A stretch of 64,000 nucleotides of DNA, from assembly GCF_002854065.1 (NCBI RefSeq), contig NZ_CP024147.1; one strand, given 5' to 3'. Source of the stretch: Escherichia coli. Lineage in GTDB: Bacteria > Pseudomonadota > Gammaproteobacteria > Enterobacterales > Enterobacteriaceae. Each line of letters starts with the position of its first letter. The first letter of the stretch is position 1. Both the position numbers and the translations under genes were made by a program. Below are positions 3,220-52,400 of the stretch, one piece after another. The notes beneath the pieces were generated by a model. The model ran no database searches, was not told where the DNA came from, and saw nothing but the letters and a program-made list of their open reading frames with translations.

Positions 3220-4605
3220 TTACGTTTCGCTCACTGGCGTTCTGTCACCTTCGTACAGCGGCACTTTGCGATAGCGGCGGATCAGATACCACAAATATGC
3301 GCCGCCTAACGAAGCCCATACCAGACCGAGTGTCAGTGACGTTGACTCGAGGTTAACCCACAGCACACCCACCGTCAGCGCGCCAACCAGCGGCATCAGC
3401 AAATAGTGGAAGTGATCCTTCCAGCTTTTATTCATTCCTTTGCGCCGCCAGAAATGATTAAACACCGACAGATTCACGAAGGTAAACGCCACCAGAGCAC
3501 CGAAGTTAATTAACGCTGTGGCGGTAACTAAATCGAAGAACAGCGCCGACAACGCGACAATCCCGACCATAATGACGTTCAGTGCCGGAGTCCGCCATTT
3601 TGGGTGCACATAGCCAAACACGCGCTCCGGAAACACATTGTCACGCCCCATCACATACAGCAGACGCGACACGCTGGCATGTGAAGCCAGGCCAGAGGCT
3701 AACGTGTTCACAAACGTGGTGCAGAGGAAAATCGACTGGAAGAGCTTGCCGCCGACGTACAGCGCAATTTCAGGCAGTGCGGCGTCCGGGTCTTTAAAGC
3801 GGCTGATATCGGGGAAGAACAGCTGCATAAAGAACGACGCCGCGATAAAGATAACGCCACCATAGACCGCCGTCAGGAAGATGGCTTTCGGGATCACGCG
3901 TGCGGCGTCTGGTGTCTCTTCCGAAAGTGTGGTCACCGCATCGAAACCAAGGAAAGAGAAGCAGACGATCGTCGCCCCGGTAATAATCGGAATCAGATGC
4001 GCGTTCTCGCTGATAAACGGCTGAAGTGACCAGACGGTGCCAACGCCTTCTCCTTTATGCAGTCCCTGAACCACCAGGAAGATAAACACCACCATGATGG
4101 AGATTTGCACCAGTACAAACAGGGTATTGAAGTTAGCGACCAGGTTGACGCTCTTCAGATTCGCGGCGGTTAAAATGGCGACGAAGGTTACCACCCACAC
4201 CCACGGCGGCACTTCCGGGAAGAGGGCGGAGAGATAGATTTTCGCCAACAAAACGTTGATCATCGGCAAAAAGAGATAATCCAGCAGTGATGACCAGCCG
4301 ACCATAAATCCGACGTGCGGGTTAATCGACTTTTGCGCGTAGGTATAGGCCGAACCGGCCTCCGGAAACTGGCGAACCAGTTTGCCGTAGCTGATAGCGG
4401 TAAACAGCACGCCCGCCAGCGCCAGCAAATAGGACGCCGGAACGTGACCGTCGCTAATGCCGGAGACAATACCAAAAGTATCAAATACGGTCATCGGCGT
4501 GAGATAGGCCAGACCCATCATCACCACCTGCCACAATTTCAGTGATTTTCGCAGACGGGTTTTGCCGGGTTGCGCGGCAATATTCAGTGGTGAATTAATA
4601 GCCAT
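3220..4605 (-). CDS. puuP: Putrescine importer PuuP (amino acid/polyamine permease)
   Basis: ORF track 3220..4659; start trimmed to Met giving 461 aa ([12 protein letters not shown]...), the K-12 PuuP length; multi-pass membrane protein. Confidence 0.9.
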
Positions 4606-4907
4606 AATTGCTGCCTCCCCTGCGTAATAAGGTTTGCGGTCGTGTCGACCTGAAATCAAACCTGTTTAGCAAGGGAAGCAAAGGGGGCGGAGTCCAGTCA
4701 GTCGCAGGAGGGGCGCATACGCAGCCTCCCTCGCCATGCGGGGATTTAATCATCGGCATCATCTCATTTCCTCGTCACAGTCTTAATCGTTAACGGAAGC
4801 CCGTTGCCGCCTGCGCTCCATAACGCGACATCCGGGAAATGTCTGGATTACCAGCAAATGTCAGGCCTGGCTCCGCTCAGGCCGATGAAACAACCCCGCA
4901 AGGGGTA

Positions 4908-6308
4908 TTACGCGTTTTTCAACATCCACTCAATTTCTGTTTCTGTGATGAGGCGCTCAAACTGCAACAGCTCATCATTTTTACAGGCGTGATACACATG
5001 GCAAAACCGTTCGCCTAAATAGCGGCGCAGGTGATCATTCTCGATAAACTCACCCAGGGCATCGCTCTGGCGAATCGGGAAGGGTAAGCCATCCTGTTCC
5101 AGCCCGTTGCCTTCGACTTCTTCCTGCAACGGCAGCTCGTTATCAAGACCGTGCAAAATACCGGCAAAAATCGCTGCCATCACCAGATATGGGTTGGCAT
5201 CGGCACCCGCCACGCGATATTCCACGCGGTGATTATGGCGATCGCCGCATGGAATACGCAGGGCGACGGTACGGTTATTATGGCCCCACGACGCCTGCGT
5301 CGGTACATACATACCTGGCTGGAAGCGGCGATACGAGTTCACGTTTGGTGCCAGCAACGCCATTGATGACGGCATCAGGTCAATCATCCCGGCGAGCATC
5401 TTTTTCAGCAGCGGCGAATCTTCGCCTTCTGTGTCAGAAAGCACGTTCTCGCCACGATTATTTTGCATACTGATATGGATATGCATTCCGCTGCCCGCGT
5501 GCTCTTCATACGGCTTCGCCATAAAAGTGGCGTGCATCTTATGCTTTTCTGCCATCAGACGCACCAGGCGTTTTAGTGCCAGCGCATCATCGCAGGCTTC
5601 CAGCACGTTATCAGTATGGTAAAGGTTGATTTCAAACTGACCCGGCGAGGCCTCAGCGACCGCGCCATCTGCCGGAATCAGCTGTAACTGCGCCAGTTCA
5701 TCAATATCATTGAGCACGTCGGCGAAGTGGTTGAGGTTATCAACGGAGTAAACCTGGCTTTGTGTATTGCGGTCATCAGTGCCGGGCGCGCAGGGCGGTT
5801 GCAGATACCCTTCAGCGTCGCGCTGGCGATCCAGTAAATAGAACTCCAGCTCTACCGCTACGACCGGGAACAATCCGCGCTGGCGCAGCTGCTGCCACAG
5901 GCGGTTAAGAACGTTCCGCGGCTCAACGTCAAAGGGAGCGCCATCTTCATCGACCATGGTCAGGAGCATCTGACCGATAAACTCTGGATCGGCGGCAGAA
6001 GGGGTTAAGGAACCGAGAACAGGAACACAGGTACGATCCGGCTCGCCCATTTCCTGACCCAGACCTGCTTCTTCTACTACGTTGCCCAGAATATCCATTG
6101 CAAATACCGAGGCCGGGAAATAACACCCTTTCTCGAGCTTCTTCAGGCTTGAAACAGGAATACGTTTTCCACGGAAGCAACCATTCAAATCGGTAAGTAA
6201 AACATCAACATATTGCGTATTCGGGTAGCGCTCCAGGTAGCGTTTCACTTCCTGCGTAAAGGCGCTACCCCGCCTCTCTTCTGACTGCTGAACAAAGTTC
6301 TCTACTTC
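4908..6308 (-). pseudogene. puuA: Gamma-glutamylputrescine synthetase puuA, body of the gene, separated from its first 9 codons by IS1
   Basis: ORF track 4908..6248 (446 aa, glutamine-synthetase-like); in-frame upstream codons ...VENFVQQSEERRGSAFTQEVKRY run to the IS1 end at 6309; native N-terminus is on the other side of IS1. Confidence 0.85.
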
Positions 6309-6323
6309 GGTAATGACTCCAAC

Positions 6324-6827
6324 TTATTGATAGTGTTTTATGTTCAGATAATGCCCGATGACTTTGTCATGCAGCTCCACCGATTTTGAGAACGACAGCG
6401 ACTTCCGTCCCAGCCGTGCCAGGTGCTGCCTCAGATTCAGGTTATGCCGCTCAATTCGCTGCGTATATCGCTTGCTGATTACGTGCAGCTTTCCCTTCAG
6501 GCGGGATTCATACAGCGGCCAGCCATCCGTCATCCATATCACCACGTCAAAGGGTGACAGCAGGCTCATAAGACGCCCCAGCGTCGCCATAGTGCGTTCA
6601 CCGAATACGTGCGCAACAACCGTCTTCCGGAGCCTGTCATACGCGTAAAACAGCCAGCGCTGGCGCGATTTAGCCCCGACGTATCCCCACTGTTCGTCCA
6701 TTTCCGCGCAGACGATGACGTCACTGCCCGGCTGTATGCGCGAGGTTACCGACTGCGGCCTGAGTTTTTTAAATGGCGGAAAATCGTGTTGAGGCCAACG
6801 CCCATAATGCGGGCGGTTGCCCGGCAT
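6324..6827 (-). CDS. insB: IS1 InsB (expressed as InsAB-prime transposase by -1 frameshift)
   Basis: ORF track 167 aa recognised as IS1 InsB; overlaps insA in the -1 frame. Confidence 0.9.
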
Positions 6828-7021
6828 CCAACGCCATTCATGGCCATATCAATGATTTTCTGGTGCGTACCGGGTTGAGAAGCGGTGTAAGTGAACTGCA
6901 GTTGCCATGTTTTACGGCAGTGAGAGCAGAGATAGCGCTGATGTCCGGCAGTGCTTTTGCCGTTACGCACCACCCCGTCAGTAGCTGAACAGGAGGGACA
7001 GCTGATAGAAACAGAAGCCAC
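6746..7021 (-). CDS. insA: IS1 InsA
   Basis: ORF track 91 aa [43 protein letters not shown]... recognised as IS1 InsA. Confidence 0.92.
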
Positions 7022-7076
7022 TGGAGCACCTCAAAAACACCATCATACACTAAATCAGTAAGTTGGCAGCATCACC

Positions 7077-7103
7077 CTCTACTTCAACGATATTGGTTTC
7101 CAT
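7077..7103 (-). pseudogene. puuA: puuA 5-prime fragment: start codon plus first 9 codons (METNIVEVE) stranded upstream of IS1
   Basis: Reverse translation from ATG at 7103 gives METNIVEVE then the IS1 end; the same VE(N) codons resume at 6308, consistent with a 9-bp target duplication. Confidence 0.8.
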
Positions 7104-7314
7104 GATTCTTCGCCTTTGGTTTGTTTTCCGCTCGTTATCAAAGCGTAAAATATAATGACCACCATTCGAATCTGTATGCAAACTAAATGTTTGTCAAATG
7201 TTAAATTGAGTTTGCAAAAATGAAAACTCACTGCTAGATTGAAAAAATATTGAACATAAAGGTCATTTAAACCGCAGTAATGGCGATAATTTAGTCCACT
7301 TTGTGAGATTGAGC
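7104..7314. promoter_or_regulatory. puuA / puuD divergent control region with two similar A/T-rich motifs (AAAATATAATGACC 7147-7160; AAAAATATTGAACATA 7243-7258); candidate PuuR operators
   Basis: Motifs read directly; assignment to PuuR is inference from location only. Confidence 0.3.
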
Positions 7315-8079
7315 ATGGAAAATATAATGAACAATCCGGTTATCGGTGTCGTAATGTGCAGGAACAGGCTTAAGGGTCATGCGACCCAGACTCTGCAAGA
7401 AAAGTACCTGAATGCCATCATCCATGCAGGCGGCTTGCCAATTGCGCTGCCACATGCGCTGGCGGAACCGTCGTTACTTGAACAACTTTTGCCGAAACTC
7501 GATGGCATTTACCTTCCTGGTAGTCCCAGCAATGTGCAGCCGCACCTATATGGTGAAAACGGCGATGAGCCTGACGCCGATCCCGGGCGTGATCTTCTGA
7601 GCATGGCGTTAATTAATGCCGCACTCGAAAGGCGCATCCCCATTTTCGCCATCTGCCGGGGTTTACAGGAACTGGTGGTGGCAACCGGTGGTTCGTTGCA
7701 TCGCAAGCTGTGCGAACAGCCTGAATTGCTGGAACATCGGGAAGATCCCGAACTGCCGGTGGAACAGCAATATGCACCGTCGCATGAAGTTCAGGTTGAA
7801 GAGGGGGGATTGCTGTCTGCGTTGTTACCTGAATGTAGCAACTTTTGGGTAAACTCTCTGCATGGACAAGGGGCAAAGGTCGTTAGCCCACGGTTGCGTG
7901 TTGAAGCTCGCTCGCCGGATGGCTTAGTTGAGGCGGTTAGCGTCATCAATCATCCTTTTGCGCTGGGCGTACAGTGGCACCCGGAATGGAACAGTAGCGA
8001 GTACGCGCTTTCGCGTATATTGTTCGAGGGCTTTATCACCGCTTGTCAGCACCATATCGCTGAAAAACAGCGACTCTGA
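7315..8079 (+). CDS. puuD: Gamma-glutamyl-GABA hydrolase PuuD (class I glutamine amidotransferase-like)
   Basis: ORF track 7303..8079; start trimmed to MENIMNNPVIG giving 254 aa, the K-12 length. Confidence 0.9.
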   Translation: MENIMNNPVIGVVMCRNRLKGHATQTLQEKYLNAIIHAGGLPIALPHALAEPSLLEQLLPKLDGIYLPGSPSNVQPHLYGENGDEPDADPGRDLLSMALINAALERRIPIFAICRGLQELVVATGGSLHRKLCEQPELLEHREDPELPVEQQYAPSHEVQVEEGGLLSALLPECSNFWVNSLHGQGAKVVSPRLRVEARSPDGLVEAVSVINHPFALGVQWHPEWNSSEYALSRILFEGFITACQHHIAEKQRL

Positions 8080-8105: not shown

Positions 8106-8663
8106 ATGAGTGATGAGGGACTGGCGCCAGGAAAACGCTTGTCGGAAATCCGCCAGCAGCAGGGGCTTTCACAACGTCGTGCCGCCGAACTCTCCGGGCT
8201 GACTCACAGTGCTATCAGTACGATAGAACAAGATAAAGTCAGCCCTGCCATCAGTACGCTGCAAAAGCTGCTGAAGGTGTATGGTCTGTCACTCTCGGAA
8301 TTCTTTTCCGAGCCGGAAAAACCTGATGAGCCGCAGGTCGTCATTAATCAGGACGATTTAATTGAGATGGGCAATCAGGGTGTGTCAATGAAGCTGGTTC
8401 ATAACGGTAAGCCGAATCGCACGCTGGCGATGATCTTTGAAACGTACCAGCCGGGCACAACCACTGGGGAAAGAATTAAGCATCAGGGTGAGGAAATAGG
8501 CACTGTACTGGAAGGTGAAATTGTTCTGACGATTAATGGTCAGGATTACCACCTCGTCGCGGGGCAAAGTTATGCCATTAATACCGGCATCCCGCACAGT
8601 TTCAGTAATACGTCGGCAGGTATTTGCCGAATTATCAGCGCCCATACGCCCACCACGTTTTAA
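8106..8663 (+). CDS. puuR: HTH-cupin transcriptional repressor PuuR
   Basis: ORF track 185 aa; XRE-type HTH (LSQRRAAELSGLTHSAISTIE) plus C-terminal cupin; synteny. Confidence 0.9.
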   Translation: MSDEGLAPGKRLSEIRQQQGLSQRRAAELSGLTHSAISTIEQDKVSPAISTLQKLLKVYGLSLSEFFSEPEKPDEPQVVINQDDLIEMGNQGVSMKLVHNGKPNRTLAMIFETYQPGTTTGERIKHQGEEIGTVLEGEIVLTINGQDYHLVAGQSYAINTGIPHSFSNTSAGICRIISAHTPTTF

Positions 8664-8812
8664 TCTTTTTGTTCTGTAAGCCGGGTAAGCGCAATGCGCC
8701 CGGCAATCCATAAAGAATGTCGCCAGAAATAAACGGGCATACGGCCCGGGGATCTCTGCGCCCTGACGTTCACAAACTGCATATATCTGATAGACGTGAA
8801 ACAGGAGTCATA

Positions 8813-10300
8813 ATGAATTTTCATCATCTGGCTTACTGGCAGGATAAAGCGTTAAGTCTCGCCATTGAAACCCGCTTATTTATTAACGGTGAATATACTG
8901 CTGCGGCGGAAAATGAAACCTTCGAAACATCCGATCCGGTTACCCAGGCACCGCTGGCGAAAATTGCCCGCGGCAAGAGCGTCGATATCGACCGTGCGGT
9001 GAGCGCAGCACGCGGCGTATTTGAACGCGGCGACTGGTCACTCTCTTCTCCGGCTAAACGTAAAGCGGTACTGAATAAACTCGCCGATTTAATGGAAGCC
9101 AACGCCGAAGAGCTGGCACTGCTGGAAACTCTCGACACCGGCAAACCGATTCGTCACAGTCTGCGTGATGATATTCCCGGCGCGGCGCGCGCCATTCGCT
9201 GGTACGCCGAAGCGATCGACAAAGTGTATGGCGAAGTGGCGACCACCAGTAGCCATGAGCTGGCGATGATCGTGCGTGAACCGGTCGGCGTAATTGCCGC
9301 CATCGTGCCGTGGAACTTCCCGCTGCTGCTGACTTGCTGGAAACTCGGCCCGGCGCTGGCGGCGGGAAACAGCGTGATTCTAAAACCGTCTGAAAAATCA
9401 CCGCTCAGTGCGATTCGTCTCGCCGGGCTGGCGAAAGAAGCAGGTCTGCCGGATGGCGTACTGAACGTAGTAACGGGTTTTGGTCATGAAGCGGGGCAGG
9501 CGCTGTCGCGTCATAACGATATCGATGCCATCGCCTTTACCGGTTCAACCCGTACCGGGAAACAGCTGCTGAAAGATGCGGGCGACAGCAACATGAAACG
9601 CGTCTGGCTGGAAGCGGGCGGCAAAAGCGCCAACATCGTTTTCGCTGACTGCCCGGATTTGCAACAGGCGGCAAGCGCCACCGCAGCAGGCATCTTCTAC
9701 AACCAGGGTCAGGTGTGCATCGCCGGAACGCGCCTGTTGCTGGAAGAGAGCATAGCTGATGAATTCTTAGCCCTGTTAAAACAGCAGGCGCAAAACTGGC
9801 AGCCGGGCCATCCACTTGATCCCGCAACCACCATGGGCACCTTAATCGACTGCGCCCACGCCGACTCGGTCCATAGCTTTATTCGGGAAGGCGAAAGCAA
9901 AGGGCAACTGTTGTTGGATGGCCGTAACGCCGGGCTGGCTGCCGCCATCGGCCCGACCATCTTTGTGGATGTAGACCCGAATGCGTCCTTAAGCCGCGAA
10001 GAGATTTTCGGTCCGGTGCTGGTTGTCACGCGTTTCACATCAGAAGAACAGGCGCTACAGCTTGCCAACGACAGCCAGTACGGCCTTGGCGCGGCGGTAT
10101 GGACGCGCGACCTCTCCCGCGCGCACCGCCTGAGCCGACGCCTGAAAGCCGGTTCCGTCTTCGTCAATAACTACAACGACGGCGATATGACCGTGCCGTT
10201 TGGCGGCTATAAGCAGAGCGGCAACGGTCGCGACAAATCCCTGCATGCCCTTGAAAAATTCACCGAACTGAAAACCATCTGGATAAGCCTGGAGGCCTGA
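8813..10300 (+). CDS. puuC: Gamma-glutamyl-gamma-aminobutyraldehyde dehydrogenase PuuC
   Basis: ORF track 8717..10300; start trimmed to MNFHHLAYWQDKA (495 aa); aldehyde dehydrogenase family. Confidence 0.9.
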   Translation: MNFHHLAYWQDKALSLAIETRLFINGEYTAAAENETFETSDPVTQAPLAKIARGKSVDIDRAVSAARGVFERGDWSLSSPAKRKAVLNKLADLMEANAEELALLETLDTGKPIRHSLRDDIPGAARAIRWYAEAIDKVYGEVATTSSHELAMIVREPVGVIAAIVPWNFPLLLTCWKLGPALAAGNSVILKPSEKSPLSAIRLAGLAKEAGLPDGVLNVVTGFGHEAGQALSRHNDIDAIAFTGSTRTGKQLLKDAGDSNMKRVWLEAGGKSANIVFADCPDLQQAASATAAGIFYNQGQVCIAGTRLLLEESIADEFLALLKQQAQNWQPGHPLDPATTMGTLIDCAHADSVHSFIREGESKGQLLLDGRNAGLAAAIGPTIFVDVDPNASLSREEIFGPVLVVTRFTSEEQALQLANDSQYGLGAAVWTRDLSRAHRLSRRLKAGSVFVNNYNDGDMTVPFGGYKQSGNGRDKSLHALEKFTELKTIWISLEA

Positions 10301-10301
10301 A

Positions 10302-11582
10302 ATGACCGAACATACCAGCAGTTATTACGCCGCCAGTGCGAATAAATACACGCCATTCGACACGCTGAATGAGTCAATCACCTGCGACGTTTGCGTGGTC
10401 GGCGGCGGCTATACCGGGCTGTCTTCCGCGCTACATCTGGCGGAAGCGGGCTTTGACGTAGTGGTTCTCGAAGCCTCACGCATCGGCTTTGGCGCCAGCG
10501 GACGCAACGGCGGACAGCTTGTGAACTCCTACAGCCGCGACATTGACGTGATCGAAAAAAGCTACGGCATGGACACCGCCCGTATGCTCGGCAGCATGAT
10601 GTTTGAGGGTGGTGAGATCATCCGCGAACGTATCAAACGTTATCAGATTGACTGCGACTACCGCCCCGGCGGTCTGTTTGTGGCGATGAATGATAAACAG
10701 CTCGCCACACTTGAAGAGCAGAAAGAGAACTGGGAACGCTACGGCAATAAACAGCTGGAGATGCTGGACGCCAACGCCATTCGCCGCGAGGTCGCCAGCG
10801 ATCGCTACACTGGTGCGCTGCTGGATCACAGCGGCGGGCATATTCACCCGCTGAACCTCGCCATTGGTGAAGCCGATGCCATTCGTCTCAACGGCGGACG
10901 TGTGTATGAGCTTTCTGCGGTGACGCAGATCCAGCACACCACGCCCGCCGTGGTGCGTACTACCAAAGGCCAGGTGACGGCGAAGTATGTGATTGTCGCC
11001 GGGAATGCGTACCTGGGCGATAAAGTGGAGCCGGAACTGGCGAAGCGTAGTATGCCGTGCGGCACGCAGGTGATCACCACTGAGCGGCTGTCAGAAGATT
11101 TAGCCCGTTCGCTGATCCCGAAAAACTACTGTGTGGAAGACTGTAACTATCTGCTTGATTACTACCGTCTTACCGCCGACAACCGTTTGCTGTACGGCGG
11201 CGGCGTGGTGTACGGCGCGCGCGACCCGGATGACGTTGAGCGTCTTGTGGTGCCGAAACTGCTGAAAACCTTCCCGCAGTTGAAGGGCGTGAAAATCGAC
11301 TATCGCTGGACGGGCAACTTCCTGCTGACCCTGTCGCGTATGCCGCAGTTCGGTCGCCTCGATACCAACATCTATTACATGCAGGGTTACAGCGGCCACG
11401 GCGTCACCTGTACTCATCTTGCCGGACGTTTGATTGCCGAACTGCTGCGCGGCGACGCCGAACGTTTCGACGCCTTCGCCAATCTGCCGCATTACCCGTT
11501 CCCCGGCGGGCGCACGCTGCGTGTGCCGTTTACCGCGATGGGCGCGGCTTATTACAGCCTGCGCGATCGTCTGGGCGTTTAA
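10302..11582 (+). CDS. puuB: Gamma-glutamylputrescine oxidase PuuB (FAD-dependent)
   Basis: ORF track 426 aa; N-terminal FAD-binding GxGxxG (VCVVGGGYTGLS). Confidence 0.9.
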   Translation: MTEHTSSYYAASANKYTPFDTLNESITCDVCVVGGGYTGLSSALHLAEAGFDVVVLEASRIGFGASGRNGGQLVNSYSRDIDVIEKSYGMDTARMLGSMMFEGGEIIRERIKRYQIDCDYRPGGLFVAMNDKQLATLEEQKENWERYGNKQLEMLDANAIRREVASDRYTGALLDHSGGHIHPLNLAIGEADAIRLNGGRVYELSAVTQIQHTTPAVVRTTKGQVTAKYVIVAGNAYLGDKVEPELAKRSMPCGTQVITTERLSEDLARSLIPKNYCVEDCNYLLDYYRLTADNRLLYGGGVVYGARDPDDVERLVVPKLLKTFPQLKGVKIDYRWTGNFLLTLSRMPQFGRLDTNIYYMQGYSGHGVTCTHLAGRLIAELLRGDAERFDAFANLPHYPFPGGRTLRVPFTAMGAAYYSLRDRLGV

Positions 11583-11619: not shown

Positions 11620-12885
11620 ATGAGCAACAATGAATTCCATCAGCGTCGTCTTTCTGCCACCCCGCGCGGGGTTGGCGTGATGTGTAACTTCTTCGCCCAG
11701 TCGGCAGAAAACGCCACGCTTAAGGATGTTGAGGGCAACGAGTACATCGATTTCGCCGCAGGCATTGCGGTGCTGAACACGGGGCATCGCCACCCTGAAT
11801 TGGTCGCGGCGGTGGAGCAGCAACTGCAACAGTTTACCCACACCGCGTACCAGATTGTGCCGTATGAAAGCTACGTCACCCTGGCGGAGAAAATCAACGC
11901 CCTTGCCCCGGTGAGCGGGCAGGCCAAAACCGCGTTCTTCACCACCGGTGCGGAAGGGGTGGAAAACGCGGTGAAAATCGCCCGCGCCCATACCGGACGC
12001 CCTGGCGTGATTGCGTTTAGCGGCGGCTTCCACGGTCGTACGTATATGACCATGGCGCTGACCGGAAAAGTTGCGCCGTACAAAATCGGCTTCGGCCCGT
12101 TCCCCGGTTCGGTGTATCACGTACCTTATCCGTCAGATTTACACGGCATTTCAACACAGGACTCCCTCGACGCCATCGAACGCTTGTTTAAATCAGACAT
12201 CGAAGCGAAGCAGGTCGCGGCCATTATTTTCGAACCGGTGCAGGGCGAGGGCGGTTTCAACGTTGCGCCAAAAGAGCTGGTTGCCGCCATTCGCCGCCTG
12301 TGCGACGAGCACGGCATTGTGATGATTGCTGATGAAGTGCAAAGCGGCTTTGCGCGTACCGGTAAGCTGTTTGCCATGGATCATTACGCCGATAAGCCGG
12401 ATTTAATGACGATGGCGAAAAGCCTCGCGGGCGGGATGCCGCTTTCGGGCGTGGTCGGTAACGCGAATATTATGGACGCACCCGCGCCGGGCGGGCTTGG
12501 CGGCACCTACGCCGGTAACCCGCTGGCGGTGGCTGCCGCGCACGCGGTGCTCAACATTATCGACAAAGAATCACTCTGCGAACGCGCGAATCAACTGGGC
12601 CAGCGTCTGACAAACACGCTGATTGATGCCAAAGAAAGCGTTCCGGCCATCGCGGCGGTACGCGGTCTGGGGTCTATGATTGCGGCAGAGTTTAACGATC
12701 CGCAAACGGGCGAGCCGTCAGCGGCGATTGCACAGAAAATCCAGCAACGCGCGCTGGCGCAGGGACTGCTTCTACTGACCTGTGGCGCATACGGCAACGT
12801 GATTCGTTTCCTGTATCCGCTGACCATCCCGGATGCGCAATTCGATGCGGCAATGAAAATTTTGCAGGATGCGCTGAGAGATTAA
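11620..12885 (+). CDS. puuE: GABA aminotransferase PuuE (PLP-dependent)
   Basis: ORF track 421 aa; class III aminotransferase; synteny. Confidence 0.9.
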   Translation: MSNNEFHQRRLSATPRGVGVMCNFFAQSAENATLKDVEGNEYIDFAAGIAVLNTGHRHPELVAAVEQQLQQFTHTAYQIVPYESYVTLAEKINALAPVSGQAKTAFFTTGAEGVENAVKIARAHTGRPGVIAFSGGFHGRTYMTMALTGKVAPYKIGFGPFPGSVYHVPYPSDLHGISTQDSLDAIERLFKSDIEAKQVAAIIFEPVQGEGGFNVAPKELVAAIRRLCDEHGIVMIADEVQSGFARTGKLFAMDHYADKPDLMTMAKSLAGGMPLSGVVGNANIMDAPAPGGLGGTYAGNPLAVAAAHAVLNIIDKESLCERANQLGQRLTNTLIDAKESVPAIAAVRGLGSMIAAEFNDPQTGEPSAAIAQKIQQRALAQGLLLLTCGAYGNVIRFLYPLTIPDAQFDAAMKILQDALRD

Positions 12886-18805: not shown

Positions 18806-20347
18806 ATGCGTCTGGAAGTCTTTTGTGAAGACCGACTTGGTCTGACCCGCGAATTACTCGATCTACTCGTGCTAAGAGGCATTGATTTACGCGGTATTGA
18901 GATTGACCCCATTGGGCGAATCTACCTCAATTTTGCTGAACTGGAGTTTGAGAGTTTCAGCAGTCTGATGGCCGAAATACGCCGTATTGCAGGTGTTACC
19001 GATGTGCGTACTGTCCCGTGGATGCCTTCCGAACGTGAGCATCTGGCGTTGAGCGCGTTACTGGAGGCGTTGCCCGAACCTGTGCTCTCTGTCGATATGA
19101 AAAGCAAAGTGGATATGGCGAATCCGGCGAGCTGTCAGCTTTTTGGGCAAAAATTGGATCGCCTGCGCAACCATACCGCCGCACAATTGATTAACGGCTT
19201 TAATTTTTTACGTTGGCTGGAAAGCGAACCGCAAGATTCGCATAACGAGCATGTCGTTATTAATGGGCAGAATTTCCTGATGGAGATTACGCCTGTTTAT
19301 CTTCAGGATGAAAATGATCAACACGTTCTGACCGGTGCGGTGGTGATGTTGCGATCAACGATTCGTATGGGCCGCCAGTTGCAAAATGTCGCCGCCCAGG
19401 ACGTCAGCGCCTTCAGTCAAATTGTCGCCGTCAGCCCGAAAATGAAGCACGTTGTCGAACAGGCGCAGAAACTGGCGATGCTAAGCGCGCCGCTGCTGAT
19501 TACGGGTGACACAGGTACAGGTAAAGATCTCTTTGCCTACGCCTGCCATCAGGCAAGCCCCAGAGCAGGCAAACCTTACCTGGCGCTGAACTGTGCGTCT
19601 ATACCAGAAGATGCGGTCGAGAGTGAACTGTTTGGTCATGCTCCGGAAGGGAAGAAAGGATTCTTTGAGCAGGCGAACGGTGGTTCGGTGCTGTTGGATG
19701 AAATAGGGGAAATGTCACCACGGATGCAGGCGAAATTACTGCGTTTCCTTAATGATGGCACTTTCCGTCGGGTTGGCGAAGACCATGAGGTGCATGTCGA
19801 TGTGCGGGTGATTTGCGCTACGCAGAAGAATCTGGTCGAACTGGTGCAAAAAGGCGTGTTCCGTGAAGATCTCTATTATCGTCTGAACGTGTTGACGCTT
19901 AATCTGCCGCCGCTACGTGACTGTCCGCAGGACATCATGCCGTTAACCGAGCTGTTCGTTGCCCGCTTTGCCGACGAGCAGGGCGTGCCGCGTCCGAAAC
20001 TGGCCGCTGACCTGAATACTGTACTTACGCGTTATGCGTGGCCGGGAAATGTGCGGCAGTTAAAGAACGCTATCTATCGCGCACTGACACAACTGGACGG
20101 CTATGAGCTGCGTCCTCAGGATATTTTGTTGCCGGATTATGACGCCGCAACGGTAGCCGTGGGCGAAGATGCGATGGAAGGTTCGCTGGACGAAATTACC
20201 AGCCGTTTTGAACGCTCGGTATTAACCCAGCTTTATCGCAATTATCCCAGCACGCGCAAACTGGCAAAACGTCTCGGCGTTTCACATACCGCGATTGCCA
20301 ATAAGTTGCGGGAATATGGTCTGAGTCAGAAGAAGAACGAAGAGTAA
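18806..20347 (+). CDS. tyrR: Aromatic amino acid regulator TyrR
   Basis: ORF track 18779..20347; start trimmed to MRLEVFCEDRLGL (513 aa); ACT-PAS-AAA+-HTH architecture. Confidence 0.93.
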   Translation: MRLEVFCEDRLGLTRELLDLLVLRGIDLRGIEIDPIGRIYLNFAELEFESFSSLMAEIRRIAGVTDVRTVPWMPSEREHLALSALLEALPEPVLSVDMKSKVDMANPASCQLFGQKLDRLRNHTAAQLINGFNFLRWLESEPQDSHNEHVVINGQNFLMEITPVYLQDENDQHVLTGAVVMLRSTIRMGRQLQNVAAQDVSAFSQIVAVSPKMKHVVEQAQKLAMLSAPLLITGDTGTGKDLFAYACHQASPRAGKPYLALNCASIPEDAVESELFGHAPEGKKGFFEQANGGSVLLDEIGEMSPRMQAKLLRFLNDGTFRRVGEDHEVHVDVRVICATQKNLVELVQKGVFREDLYYRLNVLTLNLPPLRDCPQDIMPLTELFVARFADEQGVPRPKLAADLNTVLTRYAWPGNVRQLKNAIYRALTQLDGYELRPQDILLPDYDAATVAVGEDAMEGSLDEITSRFERSVLTQLYRNYPSTRKLAKRLGVSHTAIANKLREYGLSQKKNEE

Positions 20348-32668: not shown

Positions 32669-32678
32669 CCGTTCTCTC

Positions 32679-32747
32679 TTAAGACAAACGTGGGTAAATC
32701 CCCGGACCTATCGGCAGACCAACAAGATACCACGCCAGCAACATCAG
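32679..32747 (-). pseudogene. abgT: Residual 3-prime end (22 codons + stop) of abgT, truncated by IS1
   Basis: Reverse translation [26 protein letters not shown] runs from the IS1 end to a stop 10 nt before the ogt start; abgT is the K-12 upstream neighbour of ogt. C-terminal identity is from synteny, not exact recall. Confidence 0.55.
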
Positions 32748-32802
32748 GGTGATGCTGCCAACTTACTGATTTAGTGTATGATGGTGTTTTTGAGGTGCTC
32801 CA

Positions 32803-33078
32803 GTGGCTTCTGTTTCTATCAGCTGTCCCTCCTGTTCAGCTACTGACGGGGTGGTGCGTAACGGCAAAAGCACTGCCGGACATCAGCGCTATCTCTGCTC
32901 TCACTGCCGTAAAACATGGCAACTGCAGTTCACTTACACCGCTTCTCAACCCGGTACGCACCAGAAAATCATTGATATGGCCATGAATGGCGTTGGATGC
33001 CGGGCAACCGCCCGCATTATGGGCGTTGGCCTCAACACGATTTTCCGCCATTTAAAAAACTCAGGCCGCAGTCGGTAA
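32803..33078 (+). CDS. insA: IS1 InsA
   Basis: ORF track 91 aa, same protein as copy 1. Confidence 0.92.
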
Positions 33079-33500
33079 CCTCGCGCATACAGCCGGGCAG
33101 TGACGTCATCGTCTGCGCGGAAATGGACGAACAGTGGGGATACGTCGGGGCTAAATCGCGCCAGCGCTGGCTGTTTTACGCGTATGACAGGCTCCGGAAG
33201 ACGGTTGTTGCGCACGTATTCGGTGAACGCACTATGGCGACGCTGGGGCGTCTTATGAGCCTGCTGTCACCCTTTGACGTGGTGATATGGATGACGGATG
33301 GCTGGCCGCTGTATGAATCCCGCCTGAAGGGAAAGCTGCACGTAATCAGCAAGCGATATACGCAGCGAATTGAGCGGCATAACCTGAATCTGAGGCAGCA
33401 CCTGGCACGGCTGGGACGGAAGTCGCTGTCGTTCTCAAAATCGGTGGAGCTGCATGACAAAGTCATCGGGCATTATCTGAACATAAAACACTATCAATAA
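32997..33500 (+). CDS. insB: IS1 InsB
   Basis: ORF track 167 aa, same protein as copy 1. Confidence 0.9.
33054..33060 (+). promoter_or_regulatory. IS1 A6C slippery motif (AAAAAAC) for programmed -1 frameshift producing InsAB-prime
   Basis: Motif read directly in the insA/insB overlap; mechanism is established IS1 biology. Equivalent motif is present in copies 1 and 3. Confidence 0.6.
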
Positions 33501-33515
33501 GTTGGAGTCATTACC

Positions 33516-33656
33516 GGTTCGTAGCTGACTAAACGTGAGTTCTTGCATCAACAGTCGCGCCGCGCTATTGGCATAAATTAACTGTTCCTCAAAGGGCGAA
33601 ACGATCCAGACAGGACTGGTGAGTAAGTCCAGGGTATTGAAGTTGTGCGTAATCAT
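33516..33656 (-). pseudogene. dgcM: Residual 5-prime end (~47 codons, MITHNFNTLDLLTSPVWIVSPFEEQLIYANSAARLLMQELTFSQLRT) of diguanylate cyclase dgcM (ydaM), truncated by IS1
   Basis: ORF track 33435..33716 runs into IS1; the portion outside IS1 resembles the DgcM N-terminal PAS region as I recall it; divergent from zntB as in K-12. Confidence 0.6.
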
Positions 33657-33889
33657 TGAGATCCCATTATTTTTATCAATTTTTGTTGCTATCCGATCGC
33701 AAAAAAGCCACATCATATGATCAGATAATTCTGATAATGATAGACGCTATTTAACACTTCACACGGTTTGTATACGGAAAAGCATTTTGCTTTTTGTATT
33801 CAATTTAGACAGAATTTTATTAATCATTTCAGGGTAATGGGGTGATGAGATGTTGCGTAACAGGGCCAGAAGGCTAGACTACAAAATAA

Positions 33890-36873: not shown

Positions 36874-37809
36874 TTATTTCACTTCAACCACATTCAGCCG
36901 TAACTCATCCAACTGATTTTCATCTTCTTCTGGCTGCCAGCCCGCCGGTTGTAGTGGGATCTCTTCGCGATCAAACGCCAGATCACCCCCGTTAACCACT
37001 TCAGAACCGTGGGTGATGCCTTTGAAATCGAACAGGTTGGTATCGCACAGATGCGACGGCACCACATTCTGCATCGCGCTGAACATCGTCTCGATACGCC
37101 CTGGATAACGTTTATCCCAGTCACGCAACATGTCAGCAATCACCTGACGTTGCAGGTTAGGCTGTGAACCGCACAGGTTGCACGGAATAATGGGGAACGC
37201 TTTTGCATCGGCAAATCGCTGAATATCTTTCTCGCGGCAGTAGGCCAGCGGACGAATAACGATATGTTTGCCATCATCGCTCATCAGTTTCGGAGGCATA
37301 CCTTTCATCTTGCCGCCGTAGAACATATTTAAGAACAGCGTCTGCAGGATATCGTCACGATGGTGACCCAGCGCGATCTTCGTCGCCCCCAGTTCCGTTG
37401 CGGTACGATAAAGAATACCGCGACGAAGGCGAGAACACAGTGAGCAAGTGGTTTTGCCCTCTGGAATCTTCTCTTTCACGATACCGTAAGTGTTCTCTTC
37501 AACAATCTTGTACTCAACGCCCAGCTTTTCAAGATACTCGGGCAGAACGTGCTCCGGGAAGCCCGGTTGCTTTTGATCGAGGTTAACAGCCACCAGCGAA
37601 AAATTGATTGGCGCGCTTTGCTGCAAATTGCGCAGAATCTCCAGCATGGTATAGCTGTCTTTACCCCCGGAGAGGCAAACCATGATGCGATCGCCTTCTT
37701 CAATCATATTGAAGTCAGCAATGGCTTCGCCCACGTTACGACGCAGGCGTTTTTGTAATTTGTTCAGGTTGTATTGTTCTTTCTTGCTAATTTCTTGATT
37801 TTGCGACAT
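36874..37809 (-). CDS. ttcA: tRNA 2-thiocytidine synthetase TtcA
   Basis: ORF track 311 aa; PP-loop SGGKDS and CxxC pairs. Confidence 0.92.
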
Positions 37810-37984
37810 TTAAAAGCGACTCAATTCGTTATATGGCATCAGAAGAGTATGCGTCATGCCGGAACGCCCAGCATAAGAAATCTGATATAAAAACTGTGGC
37901 GTGTATGGTACGGATTAGAGAGGAAAATGTCAGCACATTTGCGAAATGAATCAAAAAGCCCGCAGCAATGTGCGGGCGTTAGTG

Positions 37985-38500
<516 letters not shown>

Positions 38501-49001: not shown

Positions 49002-49408
49002 ATTATAGTTGGCTACAAAATGTATCTATTAATGATCTTTTACAGTATTTAAACTGACGTTAGCATGCTTAATTACCGTGGGTATTTCTACAAAAACCTT
49101 ATATATCCTTCCCTTAAATAACAAATCATTACCAATATATATGTAATCACAAAATATATATGCAGCGTCAATGAATTATTAGTGTGTTTTTGTTTTTTGT
49201 CGTTAATTTTTAGATTGAAGTGAGTTTTTTGTGGAATATAATTCCATCAACTGTTTTTTTGTATGCTTTTACTTGCCTGATTTTAATATTGATTTTGTGA
49301 ATTATATAAGCATTTCTTTATTGCTTATTTCACTATGAATATTTACTACGATTTATCTTCAAATTCTGCATGGCTTGTTACGCACGGTCTAGATCTAAGG
49401 AATTTTAT

Positions 49409-52400
49409 ATGCAAAGGAAAAAATTATTGTCTGTTTGTGTTGCCATGGCGTTAAGTAGCCAGACATGGGCTGCGGATACTTCAATACCCGACTCAACCGA
49501 AAAAACACGTAAGTCCAGTAAGATAACATGTCCGGCAAATATTCATTCCCTGAGCAAAGAGCAGCTAGAAAATTTATCCGCGGAGTGCAGAGAAAATAAA
49601 GATAGTGCAGTTTTACCATGGGCAGCTGCAGGTCTTGCTGCAGTAGCTACGGGAATTGCTATATATACCTTAAGTGACGATGACAATCACCACCATAATA
49701 ACTCCCCAGTTCCGGATGATGGCGGTGATACGCCAGTTCCGCCAGACGACGGCGGTGATACGCCGGTTCCGCCAGATGACGGCGGTGATACGCCGGTTCC
49801 GCCAGATGACGGCGGTGATACGCCAGTTCCGCCAGATGACGGCGGTGATACGCCAGTTCCGCCAGATGACGGCGATGATACGCCGGTTCCGCCAGATGAC
49901 GGCGGTGATACGCCAGTTCCGCCAGATGACGGCGGTGATACGCCAGTTCCGCCAGATGACGGCGGTGATACGCCGGTTCCACCAGATGATGGCGGTGATA
50001 CGCCAGTTCCAGACGACGGCGGTGATACGCCTGTTCCGCCAGACGATGGTGGCGATACCCCGGTTAAACACGATCCTGTCGTCTATAAAAATGACGTAAC
50101 CTGGGATCAGGACGCGAAAACCGTCAAAATTCGCGAAACCACCTTTACCTACAGCCAAAATGCCGATGGGAGTTACACCTTAACCGCGCCTGATGGCCTG
50201 ACGACGATAGTCAAGGGCTGGACAGTCCATGACGACAGCAACACCGTCATCTTTGATGGCGTAAATACGGCAGGTGGCATCACCTGGAGCTACGACGATG
50301 ATGGGCTCATCCATATCACTAAAGAGGCCGGTGTCGTTGTTGATGGCACAACCGGAACTGCGATTGATTTTGGTAATGCGATCATCACCGATCAGGGCGG
50401 CAATACGGCGCTGAATGGCGGTACTGTCATGACGGTTGAGGGTGACAACATCACCCTCAACAACGACGGTAAAACGACCGCCATCGGCGAGGGTTCGGTC
50501 GTTGGTATCCTTACTGGTGACGATATCACTATCAATAACAACGGCGAGACGGAAGTTGACGGCGGTACCGCAGTAATCATCAATGGCGATAATGCTACGC
50601 TGAACACTGCGGGCGACTCGACCATCACCAATGGTGGTACGGGTAGCCTTATCAATGGCGATAATGCGCGGGTCGATAATCAAGGTACCATGAGCGTTGA
50701 CGGTGAGAATTCCACTGGCTCGAAAATTGTCGGTGACGGTGCCACCATCAAACAGGAAGGCGACTTATACGTAAGCGGTGGTGCGCACGGTATTGACGTT
50801 GACGGCAATGATACGTTCGTTAGCAACAAAGGTAATATTACGGTCATCGAAGATAACTCTATTGGCATGCTGCTTGATGGTGATGGCGTCAGCGTGATCA
50901 ACATGGGCGACCTCAATGTTGGTCAGGCCGCAGCGGGTGAAAATGCCATTGGCATTCAGATCGACGGTGATAATGCGACATTTGTTAACGTTGGTGATAT
51001 TTCCGCGACCAATGCCGGAACCGGTGTCAGCGTTGCTGGGGATAAAGCTAATATTTCACTCGCGGGTGGGTTAGACGTTGGGGATTTCTCCACCGGTCTT
51101 GATGTCTCTGGCAATAATAACAACATGACGCTGGCGACTTATGAGCTGAATGTGACAGGGCAAAAAGCGACGGGTGTTAATGTTTCGGGTGATGGCAATA
51201 CGATTGAAATCGCAGGCAGCATTCTGGTTGATAAAGATCAGAAAGCCGATAATGCGCAACCTTACTTCTTTAATCCCTCAACCGGCGTAAATATCAGCGG
51301 TAATAACAATGACGTCACGCTGGATGGTCAGTTAACCGTTGTTGCTGATAGCGAAACCACTACGCGTTCCTATGCAAGTTACGACGGTGCTCAGGAGCAC
51401 ATTGCGGGTATTGTTATTGCTGGCGATGACAATACCTTCACGCTTAATGGCGGTGTCCATTTTGTCGGTGAAAAAAATGTCATGGATGATGGCTCAAAAC
51501 CTGCCGCATCTCGTCGTGGTATCGGAGATACACCGCTTATGAGCGTTGATGGGCATTCCTCAGTCTACCTCAATGGTGAGTCAACCATCAGCGGTGAGTT
51601 CCCGCTGGGTTTCGAAAATCTCATTCAACTGAGTAATGGCGCGGAGCTGGAGATTGGCGCTGACGCAACGTTTGATATGAGTGATGTGGATTCTTTCACT
51701 TATTATTATCGTGTAGCGTTATCCACTATTAGTATTGATTATGGTGCGAAGGCGACAAACAACGGTGAAGTGGAACTGAAAAATATCGGTTTTGCGGCTG
51801 CCTGGAATAAAGATTCAACGGTAATCAATAACGGATCCATTGGCCTGGCGATGTACGATTTTGGTACCGACCCGGCACCAAAAGTCTTTGACGTTGAATA
51901 CGGTGGGATTGGCGTTAACAATGGTACCATGACCACCAAAATGATGAATCAGCACAGTGTGCTGAATTATCCGGCAGAGTGGAACTTGTCTGATGGTACC
52001 TCTTTCAATAACAAGGCATTAGGGCTGACAGGTATGCTTGCCAGCTACTCGTCATCCATTCTGAACGGCGAAACGGGCATTATTGATATGTATGGCCGTG
52101 GCAGTGTAGGGATGCTAGCCATCGATAAATCAACCGCGGATAACGAAGGGCAAATCACCCTGGATACGCTGTGGGTTGATGAAAATGATGAAACATCGCT
52201 GCGTAATAATGTTGCAAATAGCACGGCGAAAGATTTCGGTGTGGGAATGGCTTCAGGTACCGATGCCTATAATGGGGCATTAACTAAAGCCACGGCAACC
52301 AACCACGAGAATGGTGTGATTACTGTCTACAACGCCGGTGCGGGGATGGCGGCGTATGGGAATACTAATACGGTCATTAACCAGGGAACCATCAACCTGG

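Follow-up and report, generated by a model that had tools for sequence, protein, structure and literature searches.

A recent, strain-specific transposition of IS1 has very probably disabled puuA, the gene of glutamate–putrescine ligase, thereby blocked the Puu route of putrescine breakdown, and probably also lowered the expression of puuP, in the Escherichia coli strain whose 64,000-nucleotide stretch of DNA (the window) is analyzed here. In what is described as the major pathway of putrescine catabolism, PuuA acts first (PMC11968103), and the allele is most likely a null or a strong hypomorph, as judged from what remains of its reading frame.

The IS1 Element and Its Target Site

The element in puuA is a 768-bp IS1 of the IS1B type at positions 6309–7076, on the minus strand, as is puuA itself. 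It is 100% identical, over its full length, to copies that thousands of enterobacterial plasmids carry under the annotation "IS1-like element IS1B family transposase"; among the best 5,000 catalogued IS1 records, 4,899 are at least 99% identical to it. The termini, IRR on the insB side (GGTAATGACTCCAACTTATTGAT, 6309–6331, minus strand) and IRL on the insA side (the reverse complement of GGTGATGCTGCCAACTTACTGAT, 7054–7076, minus strand), are imperfect inverted repeats that agree at 18 of 23 positions. IS1 elements are about 768 bp long and have imperfect terminal inverted repeats of ~23–30 bp (PMC12428005). Between the ends, sequence reading gives insA (6746–7021; 91 aa, GTG start), the A6C motif of the programmed −1 frameshift of IS1 (TTAAAAAAC, 6764–6772), and the insB reading frame (6324–6827) with its TAA stop at 6326–6324. 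All three are on the minus strand, hence, IS1 is co-oriented with puuA, as had been proposed. Against NF033558, the NCBIfam model of IS1 transposases (cut-off, 100 bits), the 232-aa product of the −1 shift, InsAB′, reaches 243.8 bits.

Both ends of the element are abutted by the 9-mer CTCTACTTC, the right copy (7077–7085) being the original codons 7–9 of puuA and the left copy (6300–6308) their repeat; a third copy occurs on neither strand of the 64-kb window, and an exact 9-mer match at both ends has a chance probability of about 4e-6. Length, terminal repeats, the frameshifted insA/insB pair, a target duplication of the size made by IS1 elements, 8 or 9 bp, and catalogue identity all identify the element as IS1. 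The original prediction of a simple insertion with an intact 9-bp target duplication is correct in every coordinate, and excision of the element restores puuA.

The puuA Reading Frame and Its Remains

The start codon of puuA is at 7103–7101, and codons 1–9 (METNIVEVE) finish at 7077. The gene was said to be split after codon 9, with the rest resuming at 6308; the split stands, and the point of resumption needs a refinement, since the duplication comprises codons 7–9 (EVE) and the downstream part therefore opens with a repeated codon 7 at 6308, codon 10 following from 6299. The 3′ part (4908–6308, minus strand), promoterless and without a start, thus consists of repeated codons 7–9, then codons 10–472 and the stop. 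The 5′ stub (7050–7103, minus strand) reads from the ATG at 7103 through the nine puuA codons and eight codons of the IS1 end (GDAANLLI) to a TAG stop at 7052–7050, giving a peptide of 17 aa.

In silico removal of IS1 and one 9-mer yields an open puuA of 472 codons from the ATG at 7103, located between puuP/ymjE and the divergent puuDRCBE operon. Its DNA is identical to puuA of E. coli CUWW06 (WP_001307767.1), and strain XJ34 likewise has a puuA of 100% identity. The restored protein matches the glutamine-synthetase-type NCBIfam models at scores below their cut-offs (198.6 against 650 for NF045547; 206.1 against 469.6 for TIGR03105); NCBIfam holds no models specific to enterobacterial PuuA, nor to PuuP or PuuB.

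The insB stop shares the puuA frame, hence, an InsB–PuuA fusion protein cannot form. The first ATG, GTG, or TTG codon past this stop is the GTG at 6246–6248 (minus strand; Val27 of PuuA), and no other candidate for an in-frame restart lies near the 5′ end; the AGGA preceding it is badly placed, 1 nt upstream, which is too close for normal initiation, and its duplex energy is −4.3 kcal/mol. Further in-frame starts (codons 47, 77, 93, and later) fall within the N-terminal domain. The absence of a fusion and a sole candidate restart without a convincing Shine–Dalgarno sequence had both been anticipated. With the puuA frame broken, no fusion, and the restart poorly placed, the reading frames are consistent with the proposed inactivation of the first committed Puu step.

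Alternatively, the allele might be leaky, read-through from the puuA or insA promoter leading to a restart at GTG 6248 and to an active PuuA of 446 residues that lacks residues 1–26, in which case the pathway would be weakened rather than abolished. Compatible with this, IS1 lies on the puuA strand, where a consensus scan finds no intrinsic terminator within the element, and the N-terminus lies outside the region of homology. The similarity of PuuA to solved glutamine synthetase structures begins at residues 21–27 and that to family profiles at residues 31–36; residue 23 aligns to residue 3 of the 443-aa chain 4lnf_A, which we take to be the Bacillus subtilis glutamine synthetase. Since the homology as a whole begins near residues 22–36, the first 26 residues appear to be an extension that the relatives lack, and a product started at Val27 could be active if translated. 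Translation, however, would have to begin at a GTG with unworkable AGGA spacing and a weak duplex, behind ~770 nt of poorly translated RNA; the insB frame, which ends 75 nt upstream of this GTG, is translated only after a rare frameshift; and IS1 insertions are classically polar in either orientation. On balance, we consider a functionally leaky allele quite improbable. The 446-aa form of PuuA, sought in the gene-position index as a route to sibling genomes, has no entry there.

Transcription, puuP, and the Control Region

PuuR represses both operons, puuAP and puuDRCBE, and putrescine induces them (PMC11968103, PMC9397018). The putrescine importer gene puuP (3220–4605, minus strand), whose DNA is the same as that of the annotated CUWW06 gene, lies downstream of puuA in the same operon (PMC11968103), and the small gene ymjE (4595–4759) lies between the two. 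As puuA and puuP share one operon and puuP is downstream of the insertion, expression of puuP is probably reduced through IS1 polarity, an effect on the operon that the original prediction missed. In a consensus scan, puuA contains a weak promoter-like match toward its 3′ end (5004 to 4977, minus strand), and a weak terminator-like hairpin directly follows its stop (4906–4893); these sites might give puuP partial independent expression.

Within the element, the same type of scan recovers the known insA promoter-like site in the IRL end (7069 to 7042), and no outward-facing promoter-like site at the insB end. A hybrid promoter, in which the IS1 repeat at the insB end would combine with flanking puuA sequence, was also considered; the scan is negative, and inspection by eye shows a TTGGAG without an acceptable −10 hexamer. 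A search for a Rho-loading stretch (C-rich, G-poor) in the untranslated insB region finds C in excess of G only within insA, which supports neither side.

The divergent control region between puuA and puuD (7104–7333, running 19 bp into puuD) is unaltered. It contains three matches to the PuuR box, at 7147–7161, 7242–7256, and 7319–7333, the third being inside the first codons of puuD (start at 7315); the consensus used is the one reportedly given by Nemoto and co-authors in 2012, and the matches serve as a lead only.

As IS1 is inserted 27 nt inside puuA, behind a putrescine-induced promoter, transcription of the transposase may respond to putrescine, which would make IS1 movement environment-dependent; we regard this as quite improbable. 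Transcription entering IS1 from upstream is known to increase its transposition (PMC12428005), while the opposite effect, repression of cointegration by read-through, is attributed to Machida et al. (1983) in the same paper (as cited in PMC12428005). The many IS1-driven differences from CUWW06 in the 64 kb are compatible with a putrescine-responsive IS1, but do not single out the puuA copy.

Comparison with CUWW06 and the Rest of the puu Cluster

The nearest genome is that of E. coli CUWW06 (NZ_CP182139.1), a strain isolated from wastewater in Thailand, which has an empty site at puuA. An IS-free allele in a related genome had been suggested as a check, and CUWW06 provides it, the empty site being matched to the base. 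From sapA to tpx, the window with IS1 excised differs from CUWW06 at one of 20,223 bases (window position 19123, in tyrR). In the literature on strain CUWW06, nothing beyond a transposon paper on an unrelated matter came up.

The 64 kb contain three IS1 copies that are identical or nearly so, and repeats commonly cause mis-joins; a repeat mis-assembly might, in principle, have put an IS1 copy into a puuA that is intact in the cell. However, a mis-join would not yield a perfect 9-bp target duplication at both ends of the element, and both flanks are collinear with the CUWW06 empty site to the exact base. An artefact is therefore highly improbable, and we treat puuA::IS1 as a genuine insertion.

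The genes of the puuDRCBE operon are all unbroken and on the plus strand: puuD (7315–8079), puuR (8106–8663), puuC (8813–10300), puuB (10302–11582), and puuE (11620–12885). PuuD, PuuR, PuuC, and PuuE pass the NCBIfam equivalog cut-offs. The RefSeq annotation of CUWW06 lists puuP, ymjE, puuA, puuD, puuR, puuC, puuB, and puuE, all intact, and the DNA of puuP, puuD, puuR, puuC, puuB, and puuE in the window is the same as that of these genes, in agreement with the earlier claim that the six are intact. The puuR–puuC spacer of E. coli measures either 149 or 274 nt; it is of the short form in the window (8664–8812), and the long form thus contains an insert of 125 bp, possibly a repetitive extragenic element.

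Occurrence of the Allele in E. coli

None of the 5,426 complete E. coli genomes has IS1 at this site of puuA, and the 36-base left junction has no match in GTDB species representatives or JGI metagenomes. The gene is present in 4,373 of these genomes and has no match at all in the remaining 1,053; at least 80% of it is covered in one place in 4,371 of the 4,373 carriers, and a sample of 60 rows down the puuA ranking comprises 59 single full-length matches and one truncated match. Hence, puuA in E. coli is either intact or wholly absent, its interruption by insertion sequences being rare. Given this pattern and the absence of the allele elsewhere, puuA::IS1 is a private and recent event, and puuA is not a recurrent target.

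PuuD occurs in 71,903 blocks; a neighboring IS1 was sought in these, and the ten contexts listed all have intact PuuA of 472 aa. A literature search for puuA with IS1 gave no earlier description of this allele. We also attempted to find a sibling closer than CUWW06 via the junctions of the other two IS1 copies; in complete E. coli genomes, these produced only joined multi-piece hits from unrelated IS1 copies.

Other IS1 Copies in the Window

The second IS1 (32748–33515; flanks, 32669–33774) is identical to the puuA copy and is not flanked by a target duplication. It connects sequence just beyond ogt with codon 47 of dgcM (minus strand, MITHNF...SQLRT), so that abgT, abgB, abgA, abgR, smrA, and most of dgcM, which encodes a diguanylate cyclase controlling curli, are missing. 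CUWW06 has the same IS1, although both boundaries differ: it keeps a 245-bp remnant of abgT and is without the 259-bp remnant of dgcM. Such a difference implies further IS1-adjacent deletions in each of the strains.

The third IS1 (57716–58483), which deviates by a single base at position 444, interrupts ydbD as a simple insertion, with GTCACAAGC as its 9-bp target duplication. To the left of this copy, CUWW06 has lost 8,398 bases (window 49318–57715), including an ORF of 1,967 aa, an ORF of 286 aa, and the 5′ part of ydbD.

Overall, the window differs from CUWW06 by at least four IS1-associated structural changes, the puuA insertion included; at the base level, the ~55 kb that align contain ~7 substitutions and a single gap of 1 base. 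From this comparison, IS1 appears to be a main source of change in the lineage, acting about as fast as point mutation. Because several other IS1 events have occurred in the lineage, the puuA insertion, one recent event among them, fits drift better than selection for the loss of puuA.

Some further features of the window concern its gene content. The 1,967-aa ORF (49370–55273, plus strand), located between ydbL and ydbC, is uninterrupted; its position is presumably that of the ydbA autotransporter pseudogene, disrupted by insertion sequences in K-12. Also, ttcA is directly followed by uspF (36874–38491), and ydbL directly by the ydbA-like ORF (48.8–49.3 kb); compared with the K-12 map, the Rac prophage and the feaRB–tynA–paa cluster are presumably absent from the strain.

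Discussion

The most plausible course of events is as follows. IS1 would have transposed into puuA at codon 9, recently and in one strain. Transcripts from the PuuR-controlled puuA promoter would now encode the 17-residue peptide and then enter IS1; the remaining 463 codons of puuA have no usable start, and so little or no PuuA is expected to be made. The gamma-glutamylation (Puu) route of putrescine breakdown would thus stop at its first step, and the importer PuuP, encoded downstream in the same operon, would probably be made at a lowered level due to IS1 polarity, the puuDRCBE operon and its control region being unaltered. The PatA/PatD route, in which PuuC-like and PuuE-like activities also take part, would still degrade putrescine. 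Since this route is separate, the expected phenotype falls short of complete catabolic loss: Puu-dependent growth on putrescine would be lost, most clearly with putrescine as the carbon source, and putrescine homeostasis would be altered.

The existence of the second pathway also bears on the choice of experiment. It begins with PatA (Schneider and Reitzer, 2012, as cited in PMC11968103), and the surface motility of W3110 is unchanged when either puuA or patA alone is deleted, but is affected when both are (PMC11968103). Growth on putrescine as the sole nitrogen source, suggested as a test in the original prediction, is accordingly a poor one: because PatA gives a second route (PMC11968103), it does not discriminate unless patA is also removed.

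One may ask whether the loss was selected, i.e., whether the knock-out is adaptive, higher intracellular putrescine promoting biofilm formation or adhesion, in parallel with the losses in phylogroup B2, pandemic Vibrio parahaemolyticus, or Shigella. A preprint does report recurrent loss of Puu genes with gains in biofilm formation and adhesion, E. coli included, and argues that the loss is adaptive in several genera (bioRxiv 10.1101/2024.06.03.596356), and puuA is wholly absent from 1,053 of the 5,426 complete genomes. However, the allele is confined to one genome, carriers of puuA almost always have it uninterrupted (4,371/4,373; 59/60 sampled rows), the other IS1 events in the lineage have no obvious shared purpose, which fits drift under high IS1 activity, and nothing places the strain among Shigella or enteroinvasive E. 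coli. Adaptive loss is thus unlikely, and a chance insertion in a lineage with high IS1 activity is preferred.

The link to Shigella and enteroinvasive E. coli, raised earlier as a speculation, is unsupported: the nearest relative is from wastewater, the allele is confined to this strain, and insertion sequences do not repeatedly hit puuA in 5,426 genomes. By inspection, the insertion sequences of the window are IS1 only, with no other types typical of Shigella. We found no link of puuA to Shigella in the literature, and no pattern of independent puuA disruption across lineages in the 5,426 complete E. coli genomes, a collection that contains no Shigella chromosomes; nearly all carriers have puuA uninterrupted. 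Polyamine genes lost in Shigella include cadA and speG, often with the involvement of insertion sequences; the preprint on Puu loss also mentions cadaverine loss (bioRxiv 10.1101/2024.06.03.596356). These losses resemble the present one in that a gene of polyamine metabolism is inactivated; however, they affect other genes and another pathway and recur across lineages, whereas puuA::IS1 does not.

Closer parallels exist both for the element and for the pathway. IS1 in fimE of W3110 (PMC11968103) and IS1B in afuB of K-12 (PMC12428005) are the same 768-bp element type, with insA/insB, the A6C frameshift, and a 9-bp target duplication, likewise interrupting a reading frame, and only the target differs. 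The loss of puu genes in phylogroup B2 and in wave 4 of V. parahaemolyticus (bioRxiv 10.1101/2024.06.03.596356) disables the Puu pathway, as does puuA::IS1; those losses, however, are multi-gene deletions fixed in lineages, whereas here a single, potentially reversible insertion leaves six of the seven puu genes intact. The phylogroup is reported to be without puuA–D (bioRxiv 10.1101/2024.06.03.596356), with which the 1,053 puuA-less E. coli genomes agree. Finally, in E. coli FDAARGOS_943 (NZ_CP065615.1; 8168–9361 of the retrieved locus), the IS4-like element ISSfl1 has inserted where puuE begins, next to puuB, and the puuE that follows is shortened (401 vs. 421 aa). As with puuA::IS1, a puu gene is hit close to its start and the cluster is otherwise intact; the element, the gene, and the pathway step (the last one) differ, and puuE is still annotated, at 401 aa.

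The insertion is, therefore, real and ordinary: a familiar gene is knocked out by IS1 in textbook fashion, an event known in kind. It matters little beyond the annotation of this strain, and no general question is opened or settled by it. For the strain, puuA is to be annotated as a pseudogene interrupted by IS1, puuP being possibly under-expressed, and metabolic models should omit the gamma-glutamylation route for putrescine. For the lineage, the case illustrates that structural changes caused by IS1 appear to be about as frequent as point substitutions.
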